Assembly: GCF_013315695.1 (NCBI RefSeq) | Contig: NZ_CP054353.1 | Origin: Escherichia coli | GTDB lineage: Bacteria; Pseudomonadota; Gammaproteobacteria; Enterobacterales; Enterobacteriaceae | Reading direction: 5' to 3' (one strand) | DNA length: 64,000 nt | In this document: positions 3,977 through 26,817 of the stretch, piece after piece | Numbering within the stretch: the stretch's first letter is position 1 | How the letters are laid out: each line of letters opens with the position of its first letter | Translations under genes and position numbers: made by a program | The notes under the pieces: generated by a model | What the model saw: the letters and a program-made list of their open reading frames with translations, nothing else | Database searches by the model: none | What the model was told of the DNA's origin: nothing

Positions 3977-4079
3977 ATGTTTAAAAAATCGCGTTTTTTC
4001 GACATATCCCCAAAACATGTCGATGGCATAAACGTATTCCAACGACATGTTTAAAAATCGCATTTTATCGACATATCCC
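3977..4079. repeat. Two ~34-bp direct repeats (ATGTTTAAAAA-TCGACATATCCC) in the convergent intergenic region
   Basis: Copies at 3977-4010 and 4047-4079, each with an internal ACATGTCGA/TCGACAT inverted motif; the second overlaps the glycosyltransferase stop. Confidence 0.4.
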
Positions 4080-6521
4080 TGACGATTCCTTGCCCGCCAA
4101 CGCCTCCACAATCACCATCGTCGCCCGTTCTCCCGCCTTGCCATCCATAAACGCATCGCAATAGTGATGACGAATCTTCGTAAGCCGCGCCTGCACCGCC
4201 CCCCAGTCAAACGCCTCTGACAACAAGTAACGCAACTCTGCCATATCATGAGCCACCGGCAATATTTCGCGGATTTGCTGATCGGCGCTCTCCGGCGTGG
4301 AGTAGCTTTTCTCGCCGTCGAGCAATTCACTCATGCCCGGAAAGTCGAGCAGGATCACCCGCTTATCAACGTGGATAGCATCGAAAATAAAGCCGCTGTT
4401 ATCGGTCAGCACGTAATCGGCCTTTGCCAGCAGCGCCAGCGTGTGACGGGCGGAGTCGGTGCGCTGTTTTAAATGCCTGCGAGCCAGGGCCAGCGATGCA
4501 GCTTCTTCCGGGCGCGAGCAGGTGCCGTGGTGCAGTTTGCAAATCAGGTTCACATCATCGCTTAAGCGCCCCAATTTTTCTGCCCAGTGGGGCAGGGAGC
4601 TTAATGCGCCAAACGTTGGGGCGTAGAGTACGGTGGGTTTACGCTCGTCCAGTTTGATATTTTCCGGCAACGCGCGGTCGAACGTGGCGTTATGCCAGGC
4701 GTCGAAGCGCGGGTTGCCGACCACTATTGCGTTGCTGAGGTGCGCCAGCGCCTGCTGGCTGTAGTGGCTGTAACACAAAATGCGCTGATAAAAACGGTTC
4801 CAGTCGGCGTGGTTCCACGTTTCTTTGGCTAAGCCGTACATGGCGCGAATGTTCAGGGGGGAAAGGCCACTGAGCGCAGGCGTGTGATAGGGGCTGACCA
4901 GGCATTTTACTCGCTGACCGTGTGCCTGCATTTCTGACAGACGCATACCTTTAAGCTGCGGATCGTCGATGTTTTTCAGTGTTTCCAGCATCTCATCCAG
5001 AAACGGTTTAAACACGCGGTCATTGATCACCAGTGTGCAGCTCTGCCCCTGCGCCTGCAGGGCGGTGATGATTGGGCGGTAGAGCGCGTAGTGGAATGAG
5101 GTTTCCATAAAAAAGCCGATGGTATCGGCGATAGGTAATGTAGATGGCTTGGTGGCTACGGGTAACTTATTGAAGTAGTGGTTAATGTTATCAGTCGCTT
5201 TTTTCTCGATATCACTAAAGCCCGGTCGCTGATAACAAAGGCTCGGGTAACAGGCCAGCCATTTGTCGGTGCGCAGCAGCGGCTGCCAGCCGTCTTCCAG
5301 CGAATGCTCATCGTTGTTCATCTGCTGCGCCAGCTGCGGGTAGTAGCGGCGGTTCACCAGATAAGCGCACACTTTGCGGCAGTCCCGCGCGTGCACCAGC
5401 CCAGGCAAACTTTTTAGCATCGTTCCCTGCGAAATTTCGCCGCCGAGGATCATCACCTGCCAGGGAATTTTCGCCAGGCTCGCCAGCAGCGCGTTCAGCA
5501 CCTGAATATGTTTCTCCTGTTTGAGAATAACCGCGTCATCTTCCAGCAGCAGGTAGTTTTGCCAGCCGCGTTGTTGCGCCAGACGCAGTGCCTGCAAGTG
5601 TGATTGCTGGCGGCCCCGTTGACCGTTTTCATTTTCACTGGCGGCAAGGCGGGTGATCTTCTCAGGAGGAATATGCAGCAATGTGAGTTCTTCACGGATC
5701 TGCTGTAAGCGATCCGGGCGTTTATCCAGATTCAGCAGAACGATCTGATCGATCGCCTGATGATGAGTGGCGTTATGCAGACTCAGATAAGCATTGCGGA
5801 GCAGCGGATCGCGGACGATATCCGTAAGCGTCGCGTTTACTGGCGTGCTGGCCCCGAGAATAAAGTCTTTATCAAAGGTGTTGTGGCTGTGCGAGATACA
5901 CAAAATCGTGCGCTCGCCGGGCAGTTGTAGCGGGTTAACGCTGAAATTGTCGGTGAAACTTTTCTCTTCGCCTAAATTGCAATCGTCATCGTAGCGGTGC
6001 TTTTTCAGGTAGTTACGGTGATAGCAAAAGGTGCCGTTGAGGATGTTATGCGGGCCGAAGCTGCGGCTTTGAAAGATGCGATTGATGTGGCTGTACCAGA
6101 TGGGGATCTGGTCGGAACCGGAGATGAGCGCCCGGTTTTTTTGCATCATAGCGATGGTGTAAGAGATTTTATCTGCCGGGTAGTAGTCGTCATCGTCCAT
6201 GCAGAGGATGTATTCGCCGCGCGCCAGTTCGTTGAGCATATTGCGTTTTTTGCCCAGCGGCAGTTTTTCCGGGTGATGGATGTAGCGGATGTTGAAGGCT
6301 TCCGGTGTGCCATTGGTCAGGCGGTCGATGATGTGTTGATGGCTTTGCGGGGAATCGTCGAGGATGATGAGTTCGCGGCGGTCTGCCGGGTAGTCCTGAT
6401 AGCGGTACATATAAAGCAGGTACGGCAGGAATGCGCTGCGGTTCCAGGTTGGCGTGACGACGCTGACGGACGGTTTTTCGCGCTGGGTGGCGAGTGTTTT
6501 GATAATGGTTGGTGTTGGCAT
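4065..6521 (-). CDS. Large multidomain glycosyltransferase (GT-A family 2-like + GT25-like + CDP-glycerol glycerophosphotransferase-like domains)
   Basis: N-terminal VSVVTPTWNR and CMDDDDYY (DxD) GT-A motifs; central LLNLDKRPDR GT25-like motif; C-terminal TagB/TagF-like region. The ORF track begins at a GTG (6593) inside a repeat, so ATG at 6521 is preferred. Confidence 0.75.
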   Translation of the reverse strand: MPTPTIIKTLATQREKPSVSVVTPTWNRSAFLPYLLYMYRYQDYPADRRELIILDDSPQSHQHIIDRLTNGTPEAFNIRYIHHPEKLPLGKKRNMLNELARGEYILCMDDDDYYPADKISYTIAMMQKNRALISGSDQIPIWYSHINRIFQSRSFGPHNILNGTFCYHRNYLKKHRYDDDCNLGEEKSFTDNFSVNPLQLPGERTILCISHSHNTFDKDFILGASTPVNATLTDIVRDPLLRNAYLSLHNATHHQAIDQIVLLNLDKRPDRLQQIREELTLLHIPPEKITRLAASENENGQRGRQQSHLQALRLAQQRGWQNYLLLEDDAVILKQEKHIQVLNALLASLAKIPWQVMILGGEISQGTMLKSLPGLVHARDCRKVCAYLVNRRYYPQLAQQMNNDEHSLEDGWQPLLRTDKWLACYPSLCYQRPGFSDIEKKATDNINHYFNKLPVATKPSTLPIADTIGFFMETSFHYALYRPIITALQAQGQSCTLVINDRVFKPFLDEMLETLKNIDDPQLKGMRLSEMQAHGQRVKCLVSPYHTPALSGLSPLNIRAMYGLAKETWNHADWNRFYQRILCYSHYSQQALAHLSNAIVVGNPRFDAWHNATFDRALPENIKLDERKPTVLYAPTFGALSSLPHWAEKLGRLSDDVNLICKLHHGTCSRPEEAASLALARRHLKQRTDSARHTLALLAKADYVLTDNSGFIFDAIHVDKRVILLDFPGMSELLDGEKSYSTPESADQQIREILPVAHDMAELRYLLSEAFDWGAVQARLTKIRHHYCDAFMDGKAGERATMVIVEALAGKESSGICR

Positions 6522-6570
6522 GGTGTTTGGGTGAGTTAATGGGTGAATGTGATGAATGTGCGTGCTGATG

Positions 6571-6680
6571 CCCTCACCCCGACCCTCTCCCACAGGGAGA
6601 GGGAGAAAACCAGCGCCGATTTTAACACCGTGCTCGATCGGTTCCCTCGCCCCTTTGGGGAGAGGGTTAGGGGGAGGGGA
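6571..6680. repeat. GC-rich double palindromic intergenic element
   Basis: CCCTCTCCC-ACA-GGGAGAGGG (6583-6603) and CCCTCGCCCC-TTT-GGGGAGAGGG (6644-6666), flanked by CCCTCACCCC and GGGGGAGGGG. Confidence 0.45.
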
Positions 6681-6699: not shown

Positions 6700-7629
6700 T
6701 CACGTCAGCAGCGAAAATGCTGACAGCAGCGGCTCTGCCGCACATAACGACTGGAGCTGCTGGCGAATCGCCGCAGCATTTTCACTCTCTCGCCAGCGTT
6801 CAAACACCGCAAAAAGGGCGAAAATATCCTCCTTCCGCAGCGGTGAACCATCCAGCGTCCATAAACTGATTAACGTGCGGATGAGATAAAAATCACACAC
6901 CAGCGGGCAATAATCTGCTCCGTCTGCCTGCCCAATCACGTCGTGATAAACGCGGTAAATCAGCCAGTTGCGCATCATCCACGGCGCGGCGGCAAAATGC
7001 TGTTGCCAGGTGGTTTGCCACTGCACCTTAAGCTGCTGTTGCAACAAAGCTTCGCTGTTGGCGTCATGCAACGTCAGCAAAGTCACCTGCAACGGTAGCG
7101 AGGCTTTGCGCGGGCTTTCCGGCAAAATCGACCAGTCAAACGCAAAACTCCCGAGCAGCGTCACCAGTTGGCGCGCCAGTTGTGGCACGGGTGGGAGTTG
7201 GGCGAACTGTGCCTGTAGCGTGCCTTTTTGTGCATGATCCCCCAGCGCCTGTGGCAGCGTCGTCAAGCGGGCAAGAATATCTCCGTCTCTGCCCGGCATT
7301 TTACTGGCGCGGGAGAGCAAAATCCCGACGGCATACAGGGAAAGCTCCGGGGTTAAATCGGGGAGCGTAAGGGTGCTCAAAATGGCCTGGTTTACTATCG
7401 CATCGCGCGCGGATAGCTCGGCGGCATTGTCTTCCACAGGGCGGTAGGTGAGCTGTAAATCAAAGGCCCTGGCATCGTTGAGCACCGCTTTGCAACTTTC
7501 AATATCGGTCAATGCCAGGCTCTGGCGAATCTCATTCTTCCAGACCTTGCGGACGTACAAAGGCGAATCGGGATATTGCGTCATAAAATTGCGCACGTAT
7601 TCCGGTTCGTAACATTCAATAAAACTCAT
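6700..7629 (-). CDS. Hypothetical protein (unknown function) downstream of the flgN-like gene
   Basis: ORF track 6700..7668 begins with TTG; internal ATG (MSFIECYEP) at 7629 with a GGAAG-like SD is preferred; no recognisable motif. Confidence 0.45.
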   Translation of the reverse strand: MSFIECYEPEYVRNFMTQYPDSPLYVRKVWKNEIRQSLALTDIESCKAVLNDARAFDLQLTYRPVEDNAAELSARDAIVNQAILSTLTLPDLTPELSLYAVGILLSRASKMPGRDGDILARLTTLPQALGDHAQKGTLQAQFAQLPPVPQLARQLVTLLGSFAFDWSILPESPRKASLPLQVTLLTLHDANSEALLQQQLKVQWQTTWQQHFAAAPWMMRNWLIYRVYHDVIGQADGADYCPLVCDFYLIRTLISLWTLDGSPLRKEDIFALFAVFERWRESENAAAIRQQLQSLCAAEPLLSAFSLLT

Positions 7630-7756
7630 AGGTGGCTTCCAGTCTTTATTACTTTGCGGAATGTGCAATAAGCGTGCCGGGAATTTTTGTAATCAAAAAC
7701 AAGGGATTGAGAATCAGGCGGAAAATCCGTTTCCGCGATGGGGGAAGGAATTGTCG

Positions 7757-9315: not shown

Positions 9316-9345
9316 TTAAAAAATGGCACGGCAATTGCTTAGCGT

Positions 9346-15999: not shown

Positions 16000-16335
<336 letters not shown>

Positions 16336-16403
16336 TACGGAACTTAAGAATCCCCATCTTCACGCCGCTTTTAACCGGCACGATTTACCGGTAAGGATCC
16401 AAC

Positions 16404-18740: not shown

Positions 18741-19718
18741 ATGCAGGTCGGACTTACATCTTCATCACTCGCCACCGGCGGCGCGCATAGCGCTGCGGTA
18801 TCGTCGTCAACCGTTGCGCCCACTCAGGCGGTGCGGCAAACGCTCCCGGCGACGGCGAGTGAATATCCGGCCTCGCCGCTGATTACCACTCGCCCGCAGC
18901 GTTACAGCGTACAGCTTAACGACCAGCTCACCACGTTGCAGCAGGCGGATCACTATCTCGGGCAACTGGAGCAGCAGTTGCTCGATTATCGTCATAGCCA
19001 GCGTAAAGGCGGGCAGGCGCAGAGTTCGGCGCTGATGCAGATGCTGGACAAACGCGCCGCACTTTCCGGCGGCGCGGTGGACCGCCAGTTACAACCAGTG
19101 TTGCAGGGGGAAGCGCGGGTGACTTTTCACTCGCCGGATCTGACGAATCTGGTACACAATCCCACGCCGGGAACGCGCATGTTCAGTGTCACTGGCGGGC
19201 GGCAGACCCAGCTTTCGGCGGTGATGCTGTCTGAGGATGACAGCGCCGCGCAGTATCAGACGCGGCTGACCAACGCTCTGCGCCGCGTGGGTGTGCAACT
19301 GCATCAGCAAGCGGACGGCATCAGCTTCTCCACCACTGAAAAACAGTGGCCCCATATCGAGCGCACCTTAAGCGTGCGCACCGATGGCGATAAGTCGGCG
19401 TTTATGCCGCTGAAAACCTTTGCCGAACCGTCACAGGCGGACCGCTTAGCGCAAAGCCTGCAACAAGGCGGGGCGGGAATTTCTCAAATGCTGGAAAACA
19501 TTAATCAGCAGCGCGCGCAAATGGCGGTGCAGCAGGAAAAAGCGCGGCAGTTGATCGACGGCATGTCCCGCTTCCCGCAAACGGAAAGCGCCGTGCAGGC
19601 GTCGGAAAATCTCGGCGGCGTGCTGGATAGCGCCAATCATAACTATCAAGTTTTATTGCAGGCGGTGAACGGTCAGGCACGGATTTCCAGCCAGACGGTG
19701 AGGAGTTTATTGGGGTAG
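18741..19718 (+). CDS. Hypothetical Gln-rich protein in LafW position
   Basis: 325 aa, no recognisable motif; located between the flgL-like and regulator genes. Confidence 0.45.
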   Translation: MQVGLTSSSLATGGAHSAAVSSSTVAPTQAVRQTLPATASEYPASPLITTRPQRYSVQLNDQLTTLQQADHYLGQLEQQLLDYRHSQRKGGQAQSSALMQMLDKRAALSGGAVDRQLQPVLQGEARVTFHSPDLTNLVHNPTPGTRMFSVTGGRQTQLSAVMLSEDDSAAQYQTRLTNALRRVGVQLHQQADGISFSTTEKQWPHIERTLSVRTDGDKSAFMPLKTFAEPSQADRLAQSLQQGGAGISQMLENINQQRAQMAVQQEKARQLIDGMSRFPQTESAVQASENLGGVLDSANHNYQVLLQAVNGQARISSQTVRSLLG

Positions 19719-19968
19719 TGTTATTGAAAATCAATCAAATGAGGTTGTCGTAAAAAATCATTTCAGTGCAGAATATGCTGTAACTCTGCGGGTTAAAAAA
19801 GGAATGAAATGGCCACTCTCAAGCAACTGATGGATAAGCAAAGCCCTGAAAGTCGTAGGCGAATAATAAAAAAAGCAGAACGACTCCGCCAAACTGTCAT
19901 TAATAAAAAGCTAGAGTTACCAATAACTAAACCTATCAGCAATTCCGATTGATTTCATTCGGGATTTT

Positions 19969-20005
19969 CGTAGGCCGGATAAGACGCCTTTAGCGTCGCA
20001 TCCGG
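19969..20005. repeat. REP element
   Basis: GTAGGCCGGATAAGACGCCTTTAGCGTCGCATCCGGCA unit. Confidence 0.7.
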
Positions 20006-20021
20006 CATATATTGGCACTCA

Positions 20022-20864
20022 TCAGCATTTCTGCACAGTATTTAACAACTTCTCCAAATTCTGATACATCGCGCTATTAATATCGCTGTTCTGCCAACCT
20101 TCCACATTAAAGGTTAATTGCCAGCTGCCGTTGCACTGGTTACGCAGAACAATATCGCTTTCCAGTCGGTTACGAACATATTTATAATAGGTTGTCATTG
20201 TCATATTATGCGCTGACAATAAATTATCGAGTTTGTCTTTTCCTGGTGCGAGGGTTTGTGATAGTAACGGTACGGAATTATTTTCTCCAGCAGAAGTTAA
20301 ATGAAATATTTTTATTCTTGGACTGTTAATTGACTCTTTTACCAGTTGCGGGGCGTCAGGTGTACTTTTCAAGTGTGAATACCCCACGGTCGAGCCAATA
20401 AATATAACAGCCGCGGTCAACGCTAACCCCATCAGTCCTTTATGTTTTTTTCTAACTGGTACAGGCGGTGTTGTCGAAGATATCTCTTCTGACACAGTTT
20501 CCTGTACCTGGTCGGTAATAATCAGCGCTTCCGCAGGCGATAACTCCGGCAAAGACACATACTCTTTATTGCACAAGTAACCTTTCTTCGGAATTGTTTT
20601 AATAATGTTCTGTTGTTTGCCATCATCGTCGATAGCAACGCGCAACGCATGGATCGCCGTCGGCAGGCTGTTACCGCCGACTATGCGGTTCTTCCATACT
20701 TCGGCACATAAATAAGATCGCGATAAAACCACATCGGCATTTTTTGCTAATGTTTCCAGCAAAATAAAATGGTATTCGCCGAGACGACGTGTTTCACCCG
20801 TTTCGCAATGTATTAAGGCATTAAGCGACGGGTCCATCCGCCAGTTGTTGATAATAATACTCAT
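20022..20864 (-). CDS. Membrane-anchored winged-helix transcriptional regulator (ToxR/CadC-like) in LafZ position
   Basis: N-terminal OmpR/PhoB-type winged-helix region, one hydrophobic TM segment (GLMGLALTAAVIFIGSTVGY), periplasmic C-terminal domain; alternative start at 20915. Confidence 0.6.
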   Translation of the reverse strand: MSIIINNWRMDPSLNALIHCETGETRRLGEYHFILLETLAKNADVVLSRSYLCAEVWKNRIVGGNSLPTAIHALRVAIDDDGKQQNIIKTIPKKGYLCNKEYVSLPELSPAEALIITDQVQETVSEEISSTTPPVPVRKKHKGLMGLALTAAVIFIGSTVGYSHLKSTPDAPQLVKESINSPRIKIFHLTSAGENNSVPLLSQTLAPGKDKLDNLLSAHNMTMTTYYKYVRNRLESDIVLRNQCNGSWQLTFNVEGWQNSDINSAMYQNLEKLLNTVQKC

Positions 20865-21350
20865 AGTTGAGTTTACCTTAGCAAGGGATAAATGTTTCCT
20901 GATAGTGCTTTGCATAAAGCACAGTCTTATACGTCCCTGAGAAGATGATTTTTCTGCGTGATAATTAATATTTTATGGTAATAGGATTATTCTTAATCAC
21001 TATATGGCGTGGAAATGTAACGAAATGACAGGACAGGTACAATAGCCAAATGTGTACTATTTGCAACGCAATGTAAATTTTGGCATCAGTACATTGAGAA
21101 CAAAACGCGATAATTGATGGCAATCTTAACTATATCAAGCATTTGATAAAGACATATTTTGATACCTGGCCATGTGGCAGATATTGCTAATAATCTTTTT
21201 ATCTGAATTTAAACTCTGCTTTTTTTTAGCTAAAAGTGGCATCGGATAATACGTGGCGAAAAAATTTTAACGGCGATTTTAAGTTTGCTCCTGAGGTGTC
21301 GTTTTTACAGGGTATCGAAACGAAAACGATTAATCCCAAGGAGCAGTATC

Positions 21351-22265
21351 ATGTTATCTATTAACACCAATAACGCCTCAATGGCCGCCGTTAATGCAAT
21401 CAGCAAAAGCAGCTCTTCTCTGTCTACATCTATGGAACGCCTGGCAACGGGTAACCGGATTAACTCTTCTGCCGATGACGCAGCGGGCAAACAAATTGCT
21501 AACCGTCTGACAGCACAGTCCAGCGGTATGGGTGTGGCGCTGAGCAACATCAATGATGCCACCGCGATGCTGCAAACCGCCGACAGCATGTTCGACGAAA
21601 TGTCTGATGTGCTGGGTCGTATGAAAGACCTGTCAACTCAGGCAGCGAACGGCACCTACAGCGACGACGACCTGCAGGCGATGCAGGACGAATACGACGA
21701 ACTGGGTCAGCAGATGTCTGACATGCTGCAAAACACCACTTACGGCGGTACCAACCTGTTCGGTGTTTCCGGCACCAGCAACACCGGTACTGACGGCCTG
21801 TTCCAGAGCGCGGTAACTTTCCAGGTGGGCGCGGAATCTTCCGACACCATGACCGTGAACATTTCAAGCCAACTGAACACCCTGGTGACCGATCTTTCTT
21901 CTATCAGCAACTCCTTTAGTGCGGATCAGGCTGACACCACGGGCACCGCAGGTGTTTCTGGCGGTACTGAGCTGACCGCGTCTGGCTCGGCTAACCAGAT
22001 GATCACCAGCATCTCTACCGCGATGGATGATGTTTCGCAGATCCAATCCAAGCTGGGTGCGTCTATTAACCGTCTGAACGACACTGCCAACAACCTGACC
22101 AGCATGCAGAACAACACGGAAGTCGCTATCGGTAACATCATGGATACCGACTACGCGACGGAAGCGTCCAACATGACCAAACAACAGGTGCTGATGCAGA
22201 CCGGCATCACTATGCTGAAACAGTCCAACAGCATGTCCAGCATGGTTTCCAGCCTGCTGCAGTAA
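21351..22265 (+). CDS. lafA: Lateral-type flagellin (LafA)
   Basis: 304 aa; canonical flagellin N-terminus (MLSINTNNASM...LATGNRINSSADDAAG); AAGGAG SD 8 nt upstream of the ATG. Confidence 0.9.
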   Translation: MLSINTNNASMAAVNAISKSSSSLSTSMERLATGNRINSSADDAAGKQIANRLTAQSSGMGVALSNINDATAMLQTADSMFDEMSDVLGRMKDLSTQAANGTYSDDDLQAMQDEYDELGQQMSDMLQNTTYGGTNLFGVSGTSNTGTDGLFQSAVTFQVGAESSDTMTVNISSQLNTLVTDLSSISNSFSADQADTTGTAGVSGGTELTASGSANQMITSISTAMDDVSQIQSKLGASINRLNDTANNLTSMQNNTEVAIGNIMDTDYATEASNMTKQQVLMQTGITMLKQSNSMSSMVSSLLQ

Positions 22266-22267
22266 TG

Positions 22268-22306
<39 letters not shown>

Positions 22307-22312
22307 ACGAAC

Positions 22313-22341
22313 AACACCGCCTGCGGGCGGTGTTGTTCTTT
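22313..22341 (+). terminator. Rho-independent terminator after lafA
   Basis: Hairpin AACACCGCC-TGCG-GGCGGTGTT followed by a T-rich tract (GTTCTTT). Confidence 0.55.
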
Positions 22342-22470
22342 CTGCGGCAGGCCTTTTTCCGCCAGACCGGAAACACCATTTCCGCCCCTTTTTCAATTTA
22401 TTGATTATTCACATAAAAATTATTGGCACGCCTTTTGCCAATAACCTGACATCGTTATCCGGAGTCATCA

Positions 22471-26097: not shown

Positions 26098-26817
26098 ATG
26101 CTACAGGACGTATTATTCGAGTCAGAAGAATTTGCTGCCGCGCCGGTATTAACCCCGCAGCAGGAGAGCCACTACTTGCAGGCCTATTTACCTCTGGTGC
26201 GTAAAGTGGTGCGGCAACTTGCCCCGCAGTGTAATTGCATTATTGATCGTCAGGATATGGAACAAACGGCGTTAATGGGGCTGTTGAACGCCATTCGTCG
26301 CTATGGGCTGCCGGACGAAGGTTTTGCGGGCTATGCCGTGCACCGGATTCGCGGCGCGATCCTTGATGAGCTGCGCGCTCTCGACTGGCGACCGCGCCAG
26401 CTGCGACAGAAATATCATCAGATGAAAGACCTGATTCGCGAAACGCGTAAAAAACTGGGGCACGAACCGGAGTGGCAGGAGCTGGCTGAGGAAGGGATCT
26501 CGCATGAAGATTATCTCGAATATCAGCAACTGGAAGGGGCGGAAACGCTCGCCAGCCTGGACGAACTGCTGAACGGCGAAGGGCCAGGCATTCCGCTTGC
26601 TGGCAGAGACCTGGAAGATCAGTTTGTCACCCAGCAAATGCTGCAACACGCGCTTTCACAATTAAGCGAAAAAGAGCAACTGATCCTCTCCATGTATTAC
26701 CAGCATGAGATGAATCTCAAAGAGATTGCGCTGGTATTAGGGCTAACCGAGGCCCGAATTTGTCAACTGAATAAACAGATCGCGCAGAAAATTCGTGATT
26801 TTGTCTATCCGAATTAA
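26098..26817 (+). CDS. lafS: Flagellar sigma-28 factor, FliA family (LafS)
   Basis: 239 aa; sigma-70 region 2 and region 4 helix-turn-helix (LKEIALVLGLTEARICQL). Confidence 0.85.
   Translation: MLQDVLFESEEFAAAPVLTPQQESHYLQAYLPLVRKVVRQLAPQCNCIIDRQDMEQTALMGLLNAIRRYGLPDEGFAGYAVHRIRGAILDELRALDWRPRQLRQKYHQMKDLIRETRKKLGHEPEWQELAEEGISHEDYLEYQQLEGAETLASLDELLNGEGPGIPLAGRDLEDQFVTQQMLQHALSQLSEKEQLILSMYYQHEMNLKEIALVLGLTEARICQLNKQIAQKIRDFVYPN

Follow-up and report, generated by a model that had tools for sequence, protein, structure and literature searches.

Which promoter drives the flagellin gene of the second flagellar system of Escherichia coli, and does the membrane-bound regulator encoded beside it take part in its control? 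The question is raised by a stretch of 64,000 nucleotides from an E. coli genome (NCBI RefSeq assembly GCF_013315695.1, contig NZ_CP054353.1), the whole of which is called the window here and which represents the Flag-2 (second, lateral flagella) locus of this species. In it, an open reading frame (ORF) on the minus strand lies divergent from lafA, the gene for lateral flagellin. This ORF is lafZ, as judged by its position in the annotated Flag-2 cluster beside lafA. The picture that emerges, and that is considered reasonably probable as a whole, combines a Flag-2-specific LafZ of the ToxR/VtrA type, transcription of lafA driven by the sigma factor LafS, and an accessory role for LafZ.

The ORF was verified at 20022..20915, where its longest form encodes 297 aa. 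The probable start of lafZ is the ATG at 20864, which shortens the product to 280 aa, and this start is favoured because the RefSeq/PGAP annotation, the starts of homologues and a conserved upstream AGGT Shine-Dalgarno sequence agree on it. The stretch 19700-21400 has 100% matches in E. coli chromosomes, and 1274 of 5426 complete genomes contain it. In the 100%-identical chromosomes, the RefSeq annotation gives lfgK, lfgL, a hypothetical protein gene (lafW) and a helix-turn-helix (HTH) pseudogene fragment, next an opposite-strand gene for a 'winged helix-turn-helix domain-containing protein', and then lafA ('lateral flagellin LafA'), fliD (lafB) and fliS (lafC), and the cluster runs on through lafS and the motA/motB-like lafT and lafU up to dinB. 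LafZ has been described as a 'putative transmembrane regulator' that is confined to flag-2 loci (De Maayer et al. 2020, PMC6993521, citing Ren et al. 2005). Database entries named LafZ show 93–97% identity to the window protein, and those in UniProt, where the name is 'Lateral flagellar transmembrane regulator LafZ', show 93–96% over the sensor domain. LafZ of the Flag-2 locus of E. coli 042 is the same gene in the same place between lafW and lafA, with no difference in kind; what sets the window copy apart is a 303-bp lafW-lafZ spacer that holds the HTH pseudogene fragment and a repetitive extragenic palindromic (REP) element. The gene is thus already named and described in the same terms, and the finding is not novel and is largely ordinary; the added value lies in the assignment of a VtrA/ToxR fold, the consensus for LafS promoters, and a conserved partner gene that Escherichia has lost.

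The domain architecture of LafZ bears out the proposal of the initial annotation that this is a membrane-anchored, one-component regulator with a periplasmic sensor. Its winged helix matches the Pfam family Trans_reg_C (PF00486) with an E-value of 4e-13 over residues 25–97 of 280, no domain precedes it, and a receiver domain is absent from the N-terminus. In the AlphaFold2 (AF2) model, this DNA-binding domain has a predicted local distance difference test (pLDDT) score above 90. A disordered linker of roughly 40 aa, of which residues 123–139 are disordered in the AF2 model, leads to a single membrane helix at residues 143–163 (143–165 in the AF2 model), where the Kyte-Doolittle hydropathy reaches a maximum of 1.85 over 19 residues. 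The positive-inside rule predicts an N-in/C-out topology, which would place the 117-aa C-terminal domain in the periplasm. An alignment of 51 full-length homologues shows that Cys244 and the C-terminal Cys280 are invariant in this part of the protein. The AF2 models are confident (pLDDT 87 for the whole protein and 92 when the sensor is modelled by itself), and the alpha/beta domain that they predict for the periplasmic part has the VtrA/ToxR fold. Outside the LafZ family, the nearest entries in AFDB50 are winged-HTH proteins of Vibrio of about 253–260 aa, a length which we take to be roughly that of VtrA. The winged helix, the single membrane helix, the sensor domain and the AF2 models therefore identify LafZ as a bitopic one-component regulator of the ToxR/VtrA type.

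The ToxR-like bitopic regulators (ToxR, TcpP, VtrA, CadC and PsaE) share a winged helix, a single membrane helix and a sensor fold, all of which are found in LafZ; a co-transcribed periplasmic partner of the ToxS/VtrC/TcpH/PsaF type, a further mark of the group, is absent from the window. Not every ToxR-like regulator has such a partner, and CadC is without one. By the sequence of the DNA-binding domain, the nearest solved structures are Vibrio cholerae ToxR (E 3e-8) and E. coli CadC (E 2e-6), and LafZ homologues are often labelled 'CadC family' in database entries. Of the earlier description 'ToxR/CadC-like', the ToxR part stands for both the DNA-binding domain and the sensor fold, but the CadC part has to be restricted to the DNA-binding domain, which is of the same subfamily. 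The identification of LafZ as CadC proper was rejected: the NCBIfam model NF007540 scored 33.5 bits, below its cut-off of 400, and aligned with no more than the DNA-binding domain; in addition, the LafZ sensor has 117 aa, and the neighbours are flagellar genes rather than cadBA. The periplasmic domain of CadC is roughly 320 aa and two-lobed. VtrA of Vibrio parahaemolyticus, which together with VtrC is the bile-salt receptor that controls type III secretion system 2 (T3SS2), has only 11% sequence identity to LafZ, and the conserved cysteine pair is a feature of the LafZ sensor. It differs also in its setting, since the E. coli lafZ locus lacks a partner, and the partner found in other genera (see later) has no sequence similarity to known partners. 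In the ToxR/ToxS pair of V. cholerae, the cysteine spacing differs from that of LafZ and the regulon is unrelated.

The initial annotation described lafZ and lafA as divergent across an AT-rich region of ~430 bp, which agrees with a spacer of 435 bp when counted from the longest ORF or 486 bp from the probable start (35% G+C, versus 52% in the window). The trough in G+C, at 19700-21350, takes in both the spacer and lafZ itself (43%). The initial annotation was also right in finding no canonical sigma-28 promoter upstream of lafA. The best match there to the FliA consensus, TAAAGTTT-N11-GCCGATAA, scored 11/16, with 4/8 in the -10 element, and a scan of the 64-kb window returned no site above 13/16. 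Because the scan for the canonical consensus gave no convincing site, a comparative approach was taken, and this revealed a shared pattern in all 50 of the orthologous lafA upstream regions, consisting of TTAA(G/T)TT, 12–13 nt, and then GTCGTTTT or a close variant. In the window the element reads TTAAGTTT-N11-GTCGTTTT; its counterparts, kept in 50/50 loci, lie 40–71 nt from the ATG in 49 and 169 nt from it in one. A position weight matrix (PWM) built solely from the non-Escherichia orthologues scored the lafA site at 31.5 bits, while the next best score on both strands of the 64-kb window, a 1-nt-shifted reading of the same site aside, was 14.7 bits and the maximum for shuffled sequence was 14.6 bits. 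In most orthologous loci a run of A followed by a run of T occupies the position of the A6T4 tract that precedes the -35 element in the window (Table 1). A second copy of the motif (TTTAAT...GTCG(C/T)TT) occurs farther upstream of lafA in four loci of the Enterobacter, Kluyvera and Buttiauxella clade (L058, L064, L046 and L038 in the numbering of our homologue scan), where lafA may have tandem LafS promoters.

In layout, the lafA element resembles the FliA-dependent class 3 promoters of the Flag-1 system of E. coli and Salmonella, which are likewise bipartite, with -35 and -10 elements separated by a spacer of 11–12 nt before late flagellar genes. TTAAGTTT matches TAAAGTTT at 7/8 positions, both kinds of promoter stand before genes for flagellin and hook-associated proteins, and in both cases a cognate sigma factor of the FliA family is encoded in the cluster. 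They differ in the -10 element, which at lafA and lfgK is G(T/C)CG(T/C)TTT and not GCCGATAA (4/8 at lafA), so that the enteric FliA consensus is missing from lafA, and also in the sigma factor, LafS being a separate NCBIfam equivalog (NF009091). The variant consensus is presumably LafS-specific. A related motif, (C/T)TTAAG...G(C/T)CG(C/T)TTT, precedes lfgK, with a median score of 12.2 bits versus -12.8 for controls; 52 of the 53 loci (98%) exceed the control 95th percentile, and 41 of the 53 fit the strict pattern. Directly upstream of this lfgK promoter is a one-mismatch sigma-54-like site (16324-16338), which suggests that lfgK has dual promoters, one sigma-54-like and one LafS-type. No LafS-type motif was found upstream of lafB, which is preceded by a perfect sigma-54 promoter, as is lfgB (Table 1). 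Taken together, the conserved variant motif, the related motif at lfgK and the sigma-54 promoter at lafB indicate that lafA transcription is most likely LafS (sigma-28) dependent. The suggestion that lafA relies on a different promoter architecture is therefore better replaced by a LafS-specific variant of the sigma-28 type. In the three-tier scheme for lateral flagella, LafK and sigma-54 activate an operon that includes the sigma-28 gene, and sigma-28 then activates flagellin. The promoters seen at lafA, lfgK, lafB and lfgB fit this scheme and also the finding that FliA_L of Plesiomonas shigelloides positively regulates fliC_L, flgKL_L and flgMN_L (PMC11242183). In the lafA-lafB spacer (22266-22420), GCCGGATGCGGCGTAAACGCCTTATCCGGCC is a palindrome of REP-like form, and AACAACACCGCCTGCGGGCGGTGTTGTT with the T-rich tail behind it resembles a terminator hairpin, so that lafA looks monocistronic.

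Further conserved elements emerged from an alignment of the lafZ-lafA spacer from Escherichia, Pseudocitrobacter, Citrobacter and Phytobacter. The TTGCAA and TATTGT hexamers of a putative sigma-70 promoter are unchanged across these genera, and the counterpart in the Enterobacter clade is TTGCAC-N17-TAAAAA. With a score of 8/12, TTGCAA-N16-TATTGT falls under the threshold of a simple sigma-70 scan, the listed matches of which were unconserved except for a -10-like AATAAT within the conserved box described below; transcription from the candidate promoter would give a leader of ~170 nt. A direct repeat of AATGTAA, a candidate operator, has both copies, at a constant separation of 56 nt, in 12 of 18 loci belonging to the Escherichia-Citrobacter clade, while the other six keep only the lafZ-distal copy. 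At least one copy occurs in 29 of 48 loci, compared with about 10 expected from shuffles. A second candidate operator is a conserved box closer to lafA (21181-21202), in which no known motif was recognised; when it was inspected by eye for ToxR-type TNAAA-N5-TNAAA repeats, only an 11-bp-spaced approximation was seen, which is at chance level in AT-rich DNA. A possible sigma-54 promoter in the spacer, TGGCAG-N3-TTGC at about 21174, was read from the sequence and rejected, as it is wrongly spaced and unconserved. In the Enterobacter clade (L041, L043, L050, L076, L078, L058, L079 and L064), the lafZ leaders carry several conserved blocks over roughly 300 nt, such as AATTGCCGC-N4-TGCCTGCGG and GGAAG...CTTCC inverted repeats, and these hint at a structured leader or further operators.

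A homologue scan using one genome per species recovered 80 loci across the Enterobacterales. The gene order lfgL-lafW, opposite-strand lafZ and lafA-lafB is kept in about 50 of these, and such conserved synteny supports a tie between LafZ and Flag-2. Within Escherichia, lafZ is under purifying selection, with a ratio of nonsynonymous to synonymous substitution rates (dN/dS) of 0.12–0.20 overall, <=0.05 for the DNA-binding domain and 0.07–0.15 for the sensor. The DNA-binding domain is 95–100% identical among Escherichia lineages, and by far the largest LafZ sequence cluster, with 2295 members, is that of the full-length, 280-aa form. A comparison of the window with two Pseudocitrobacter loci (L007 and L008) showed a mosaic, in which dS is 2.3–2.8 for lafZ versus 0.25–0.55 for lfgL, lafW, lafA and lafB (92–99% protein identity), so that recombination breakpoints are indicated on both sides of lafZ.

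In most other genera a second gene is found next to lafZ. In at least 61 of the 80 loci, including most of those in which the LafZ homologue has a non-flagellar setting, an ORF of ~155 aa on the lafZ strand starts within the end of lafZ, 20–45 nt ahead of its stop codon, and an independent gene caller gave a 26-nt overlap between the partner gene and the lafZ homologue. An N-terminal signal or anchor sequence and a conserved YDL...Y motif characterise the products, which fall into two subfamilies that hhalign joins (96.7%, E 4e-10); in the databases, all are named 'hypothetical protein'. By position, size, topology and coupling, the partner looks like the ToxS/VtrC/TcpH class of co-sensors, of which the ToxS/VtrC type is a lipocalin-like, eight-stranded beta-barrel that pairs with the periplasmic domain of its regulator. 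Its position has been classed among the variable 'cargo' regions, as VR2, with an average content of one hypothetical protein in 0.6 kb (De Maayer et al., PMC6993521). No partner gene or remnant of one was found by tblastn in the window, nor in any of the Escherichia and Pseudocitrobacter loci of the scan, and blastn detected no partner-like DNA in 5,426 complete E. coli genomes. Inserted in the VR2 spacer of the window are a fragment of an HTH (antitoxin-like) gene (plus strand, 19809-19898 or, in its wider bounds, 19809-19952), annotated by PGAP as a pseudogene, and then the REP element (about 19970-20016). A weak REP/naRNA4 hit was the sole match in an Rfam scan of 19600-21500, and in related Escherichia loci the lafW-lafZ gap is about 60 nt only. 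A tentative reading, held with more doubt than confidence, is that LafZ and its ~155-aa partner together form a hitherto unrecognised periplasmic sensor of two proteins, akin to VtrA/VtrC (ToxR/ToxS), in the second flagellar system of most Enterobacterales. Such a sensor would make late lateral-flagellar expression, or its own and further targets, respond to a signal from the envelope or the gut, for example bile salts; Escherichia would have lost the co-sensor and kept LafZ as a partner-independent variant.

ToxR, CadC and VtrA act as accessory activators or H-NS counter-silencers at adjacent targets, and a similar mode of action can be proposed for LafZ. In the cascade envisaged, LafK and sigma-54 would activate lafS, and LafS would activate lafA and lfgKL-lafW. 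LafZ would be held in the inner membrane, its winged helix on the cytoplasmic side, and would bind the AT-rich lafZ-lafA spacer, where the AATGTAA repeats and the ATATTGCTAATAATC box are its candidate sites. A periplasmic cue may lead it to adjust transcription of lafZ and/or lafA in an accessory role, through activation or through counter-silencing of H-NS; it would not replace sigma-28, since core promoter recognition at lafA would be given by LafS. In most other genera the signal would be read jointly with the co-translated ~155-aa periplasmic partner, in the manner of ToxS, VtrC or TcpH, and as Escherichia has lost the partner, its LafZ would have to work alone.

Several observations weigh against this scheme. 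The searchable literature yielded no functional experiment on LafZ. The candidate boxes are putative binding sites whose conservation is limited to the Escherichia-Citrobacter clade, and the spacing between the ATATTGCTAATAATC box and the lafZ promoter block is constant, whereas that to the lafA promoter differs by ~70 nt among loci. About 20 of the 80 loci have a LafZ homologue with zero flagellar genes within 6 kb (Erwinia, Pantoea, Pluralibacter, Silvania, Limnobaculum and others), most of them with a partner gene, and the LafZ module therefore does not need Flag-2. Truncated lafZ alleles occur in some E. coli. The partner family has no Pfam family and no sequence relative in the PDB, and hhalign comparisons of the family with ToxS (8alo_B and 8u2f_A) gave probabilities of 0.1–0.3%, so that homology to ToxS is not detectable (probability <1%). 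That LafZ controls lafA specifically is unproven, and less secure than the overall picture.

These observations leave a live alternative, although one that is considered unlikely, in which LafZ is a functional regulator of the ToxR/VtrA type with a main target other than lafA, which could be the lafZ promoter, a gene of the early Flag-2 class (e.g., lafK) or genes unrelated to flagella, and the adjacency of lafA is inherited synteny. It would explain why the conserved boxes are in register with the lafZ promoter block and not with the lafA promoter, why the AATGTAA repeats lie on either side of the putative promoter of lafZ, and why about 20 of the 80 homologues, most with the partner gene, are in non-flagellar contexts (e.g., Erwinia and Pluralibacter), and it is favoured by the complete, conserved LafS-type promoter that lafA has of its own. 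It sits less well with the divergent lafZ/lafA arrangement, which 50 loci from very divergent genera share, and with the habit of relatives (ToxR/TcpP at toxT, VtrA at vtrB, CadC at cadBA and PsaE at psaA) of usually acting on the adjacent gene.

More doubtful still is the idea that Escherichia lafZ is a decaying remnant, its partner lost, Flag-2 often inactivated and the protein unstable or inactive, with no regulatory role. The Vibrio regulators need their ToxS, TcpH or VtrC partners for stability or signalling, and the partner is absent from the window, from the Escherichia and Pseudocitrobacter loci and, at the DNA level, from the 5,426 complete E. coli genomes. Clusters of truncated lafZ exist as well, and the Flag-2 locus of E. 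coli strain 042 bears a frameshift in lfgC (PMC2808357). Decay is hard to reconcile, however, with the low dN/dS values of the gene and particularly of its sensor, the near-identity of the DNA-binding domain among lineages, the predominance of the full-length, 280-aa form, and the retention of the cysteine pair. The reading of the initial annotation, that lafA has no sigma-28 promoter and is transcribed from a promoter of another type that depends directly on LafZ, is very improbable, for although the canonical FliA consensus is missing and a weak sigma-70-like TGGCCA-N16-AATAAT lies at 21167-21194 within the conserved box, the -35 part of the latter is not conserved in Citrobacter, while the bipartite element with sigma-28 spacing and 7/8 matches in its -35 is kept in 50/50 loci, a related motif is found at lfgK and none at lafB (which has a sigma-54 promoter), LafS is intact, and the lateral sigma-28 of P. 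shigelloides controls fliC_L (PMC11242183). A ToxR/VtrA-type LafZ that is accessory to LafS-driven transcription of lafA thus remains the preferred reading, and the features on which it draws are collected in Table 1.

Table 1. Coordinates of features of the Flag-2 locus discussed in the text (window positions, except for the partner gene examples, which are given by locus of the homologue scan).
Feature	Position	Strand	Details
lafZ coding sequence	20022..20864	-	280 aa; 100% matches in E. coli chromosomes
Cytoplasmic OmpR/PhoB-type winged-helix DNA-binding domain of LafZ	20574..20792	-	residues 25-97; fold ~1-100
Single transmembrane helix of LafZ	20376..20438	-	residues 143-163; RKKHK just before
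Periplasmic sensor domain of LafZ (predicted)	20025..20375	-	residues 164-280 (117 aa); beta-beta-alpha-beta-beta-beta-alpha; Cys244 and Cys280
lafA, lateral flagellin	21351..22265	+	divergent from lafZ
lafA promoter, LafS (sigma-28) type	21279..21305	+	TTAAGTTT (21279-21286), N11, GTCGTTTT (21298-21305); ends 45 nt before ATG
A6T4 tract, UP-element-like (putative)	21259..21268	+	10-20 nt upstream of -35
Conserved lafA 5' leader	21306..21350	+	AAGGAG Shine-Dalgarno at 21338-21343
lafZ-lafA divergent regulatory region	20865..21350	.	486 bp, 35% G+C
Candidate sigma-70 promoter of lafZ	21039..21066	-	TTGCAA (21066-21061), N16, TATTGT (21044-21039)
Direct repeat AATGTAA, candidate operator	21014-21020 and 21070-21076	+	exactly 56 nt apart; flanks candidate lafZ promoter
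Conserved box ATATTGCTAATAATCTTTTTAT, candidate operator	21181..21202	+	nearly invariant in 13 Escherichia-Citrobacter-clade loci (Escherichia to Phytobacter)
Second LafS-type promoter, before lfgK	16343..16372	+	CTTAAGAAT-N11-CGCCGCTTTT, 31 nt upstream of lfgK
Perfect sigma-54 promoter before lafB...lafS operon	22424..22438	+	TGGCAC-N5-TTGC; conserved in orthologous loci
Perfect sigma-54 promoter before lfgB	9324-9338	+	TGGCAC-N5-TTGC
lafS, intact FliA/WhiG-family sigma factor	26098..26817	+	NF009091, 447 bits vs cut-off 339
'VR2' lafW-lafZ spacer	19719..20021	.	no gene where most other genera carry partner
Partner gene, examples (among L009-L081 and others)	L058:6884-7351; L012:6929-7408; L082:8001-8459

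Elsewhere in the window, the variable region VR1, between clusters 1 and 2, carries cargo genes of its own. An 842-aa ORF at 4065-6593 (minus strand; 841 aa in the family scan) has a glycosyltransferase domain, and a second ORF at 6700-7668 (minus strand) encodes a distant FliB-like flagellin lysine-N-methylase. Their predicted products suggest post-translational modification of the lateral flagellin.

About one complete E. coli genome in four carries the region in question, made up of lafZ, the spacers on both sides of it and the beginning of lafA. The LafS consensus, TTAAG-N14/15-G(T/C)CG(T/C)TTT, sets the late Flag-2 genes (lafA and lfgK) apart from the sigma-54 class (lafB and lfgB), and the predicted VtrA/ToxR fold of the LafZ sensor makes envelope or bile-type cues candidate switches for the second flagellar system. 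In Yersinia, Flag-2 is reported to be induced at 20 degrees C (PMC11420993). The missing partner gene in E. coli amounts to a natural experiment on whether regulators of the ToxR type can work without a co-sensor, and if the two-protein sensor reading is true, E. coli would have in LafZ a natural variant of this class of receptors that is independent of a partner.

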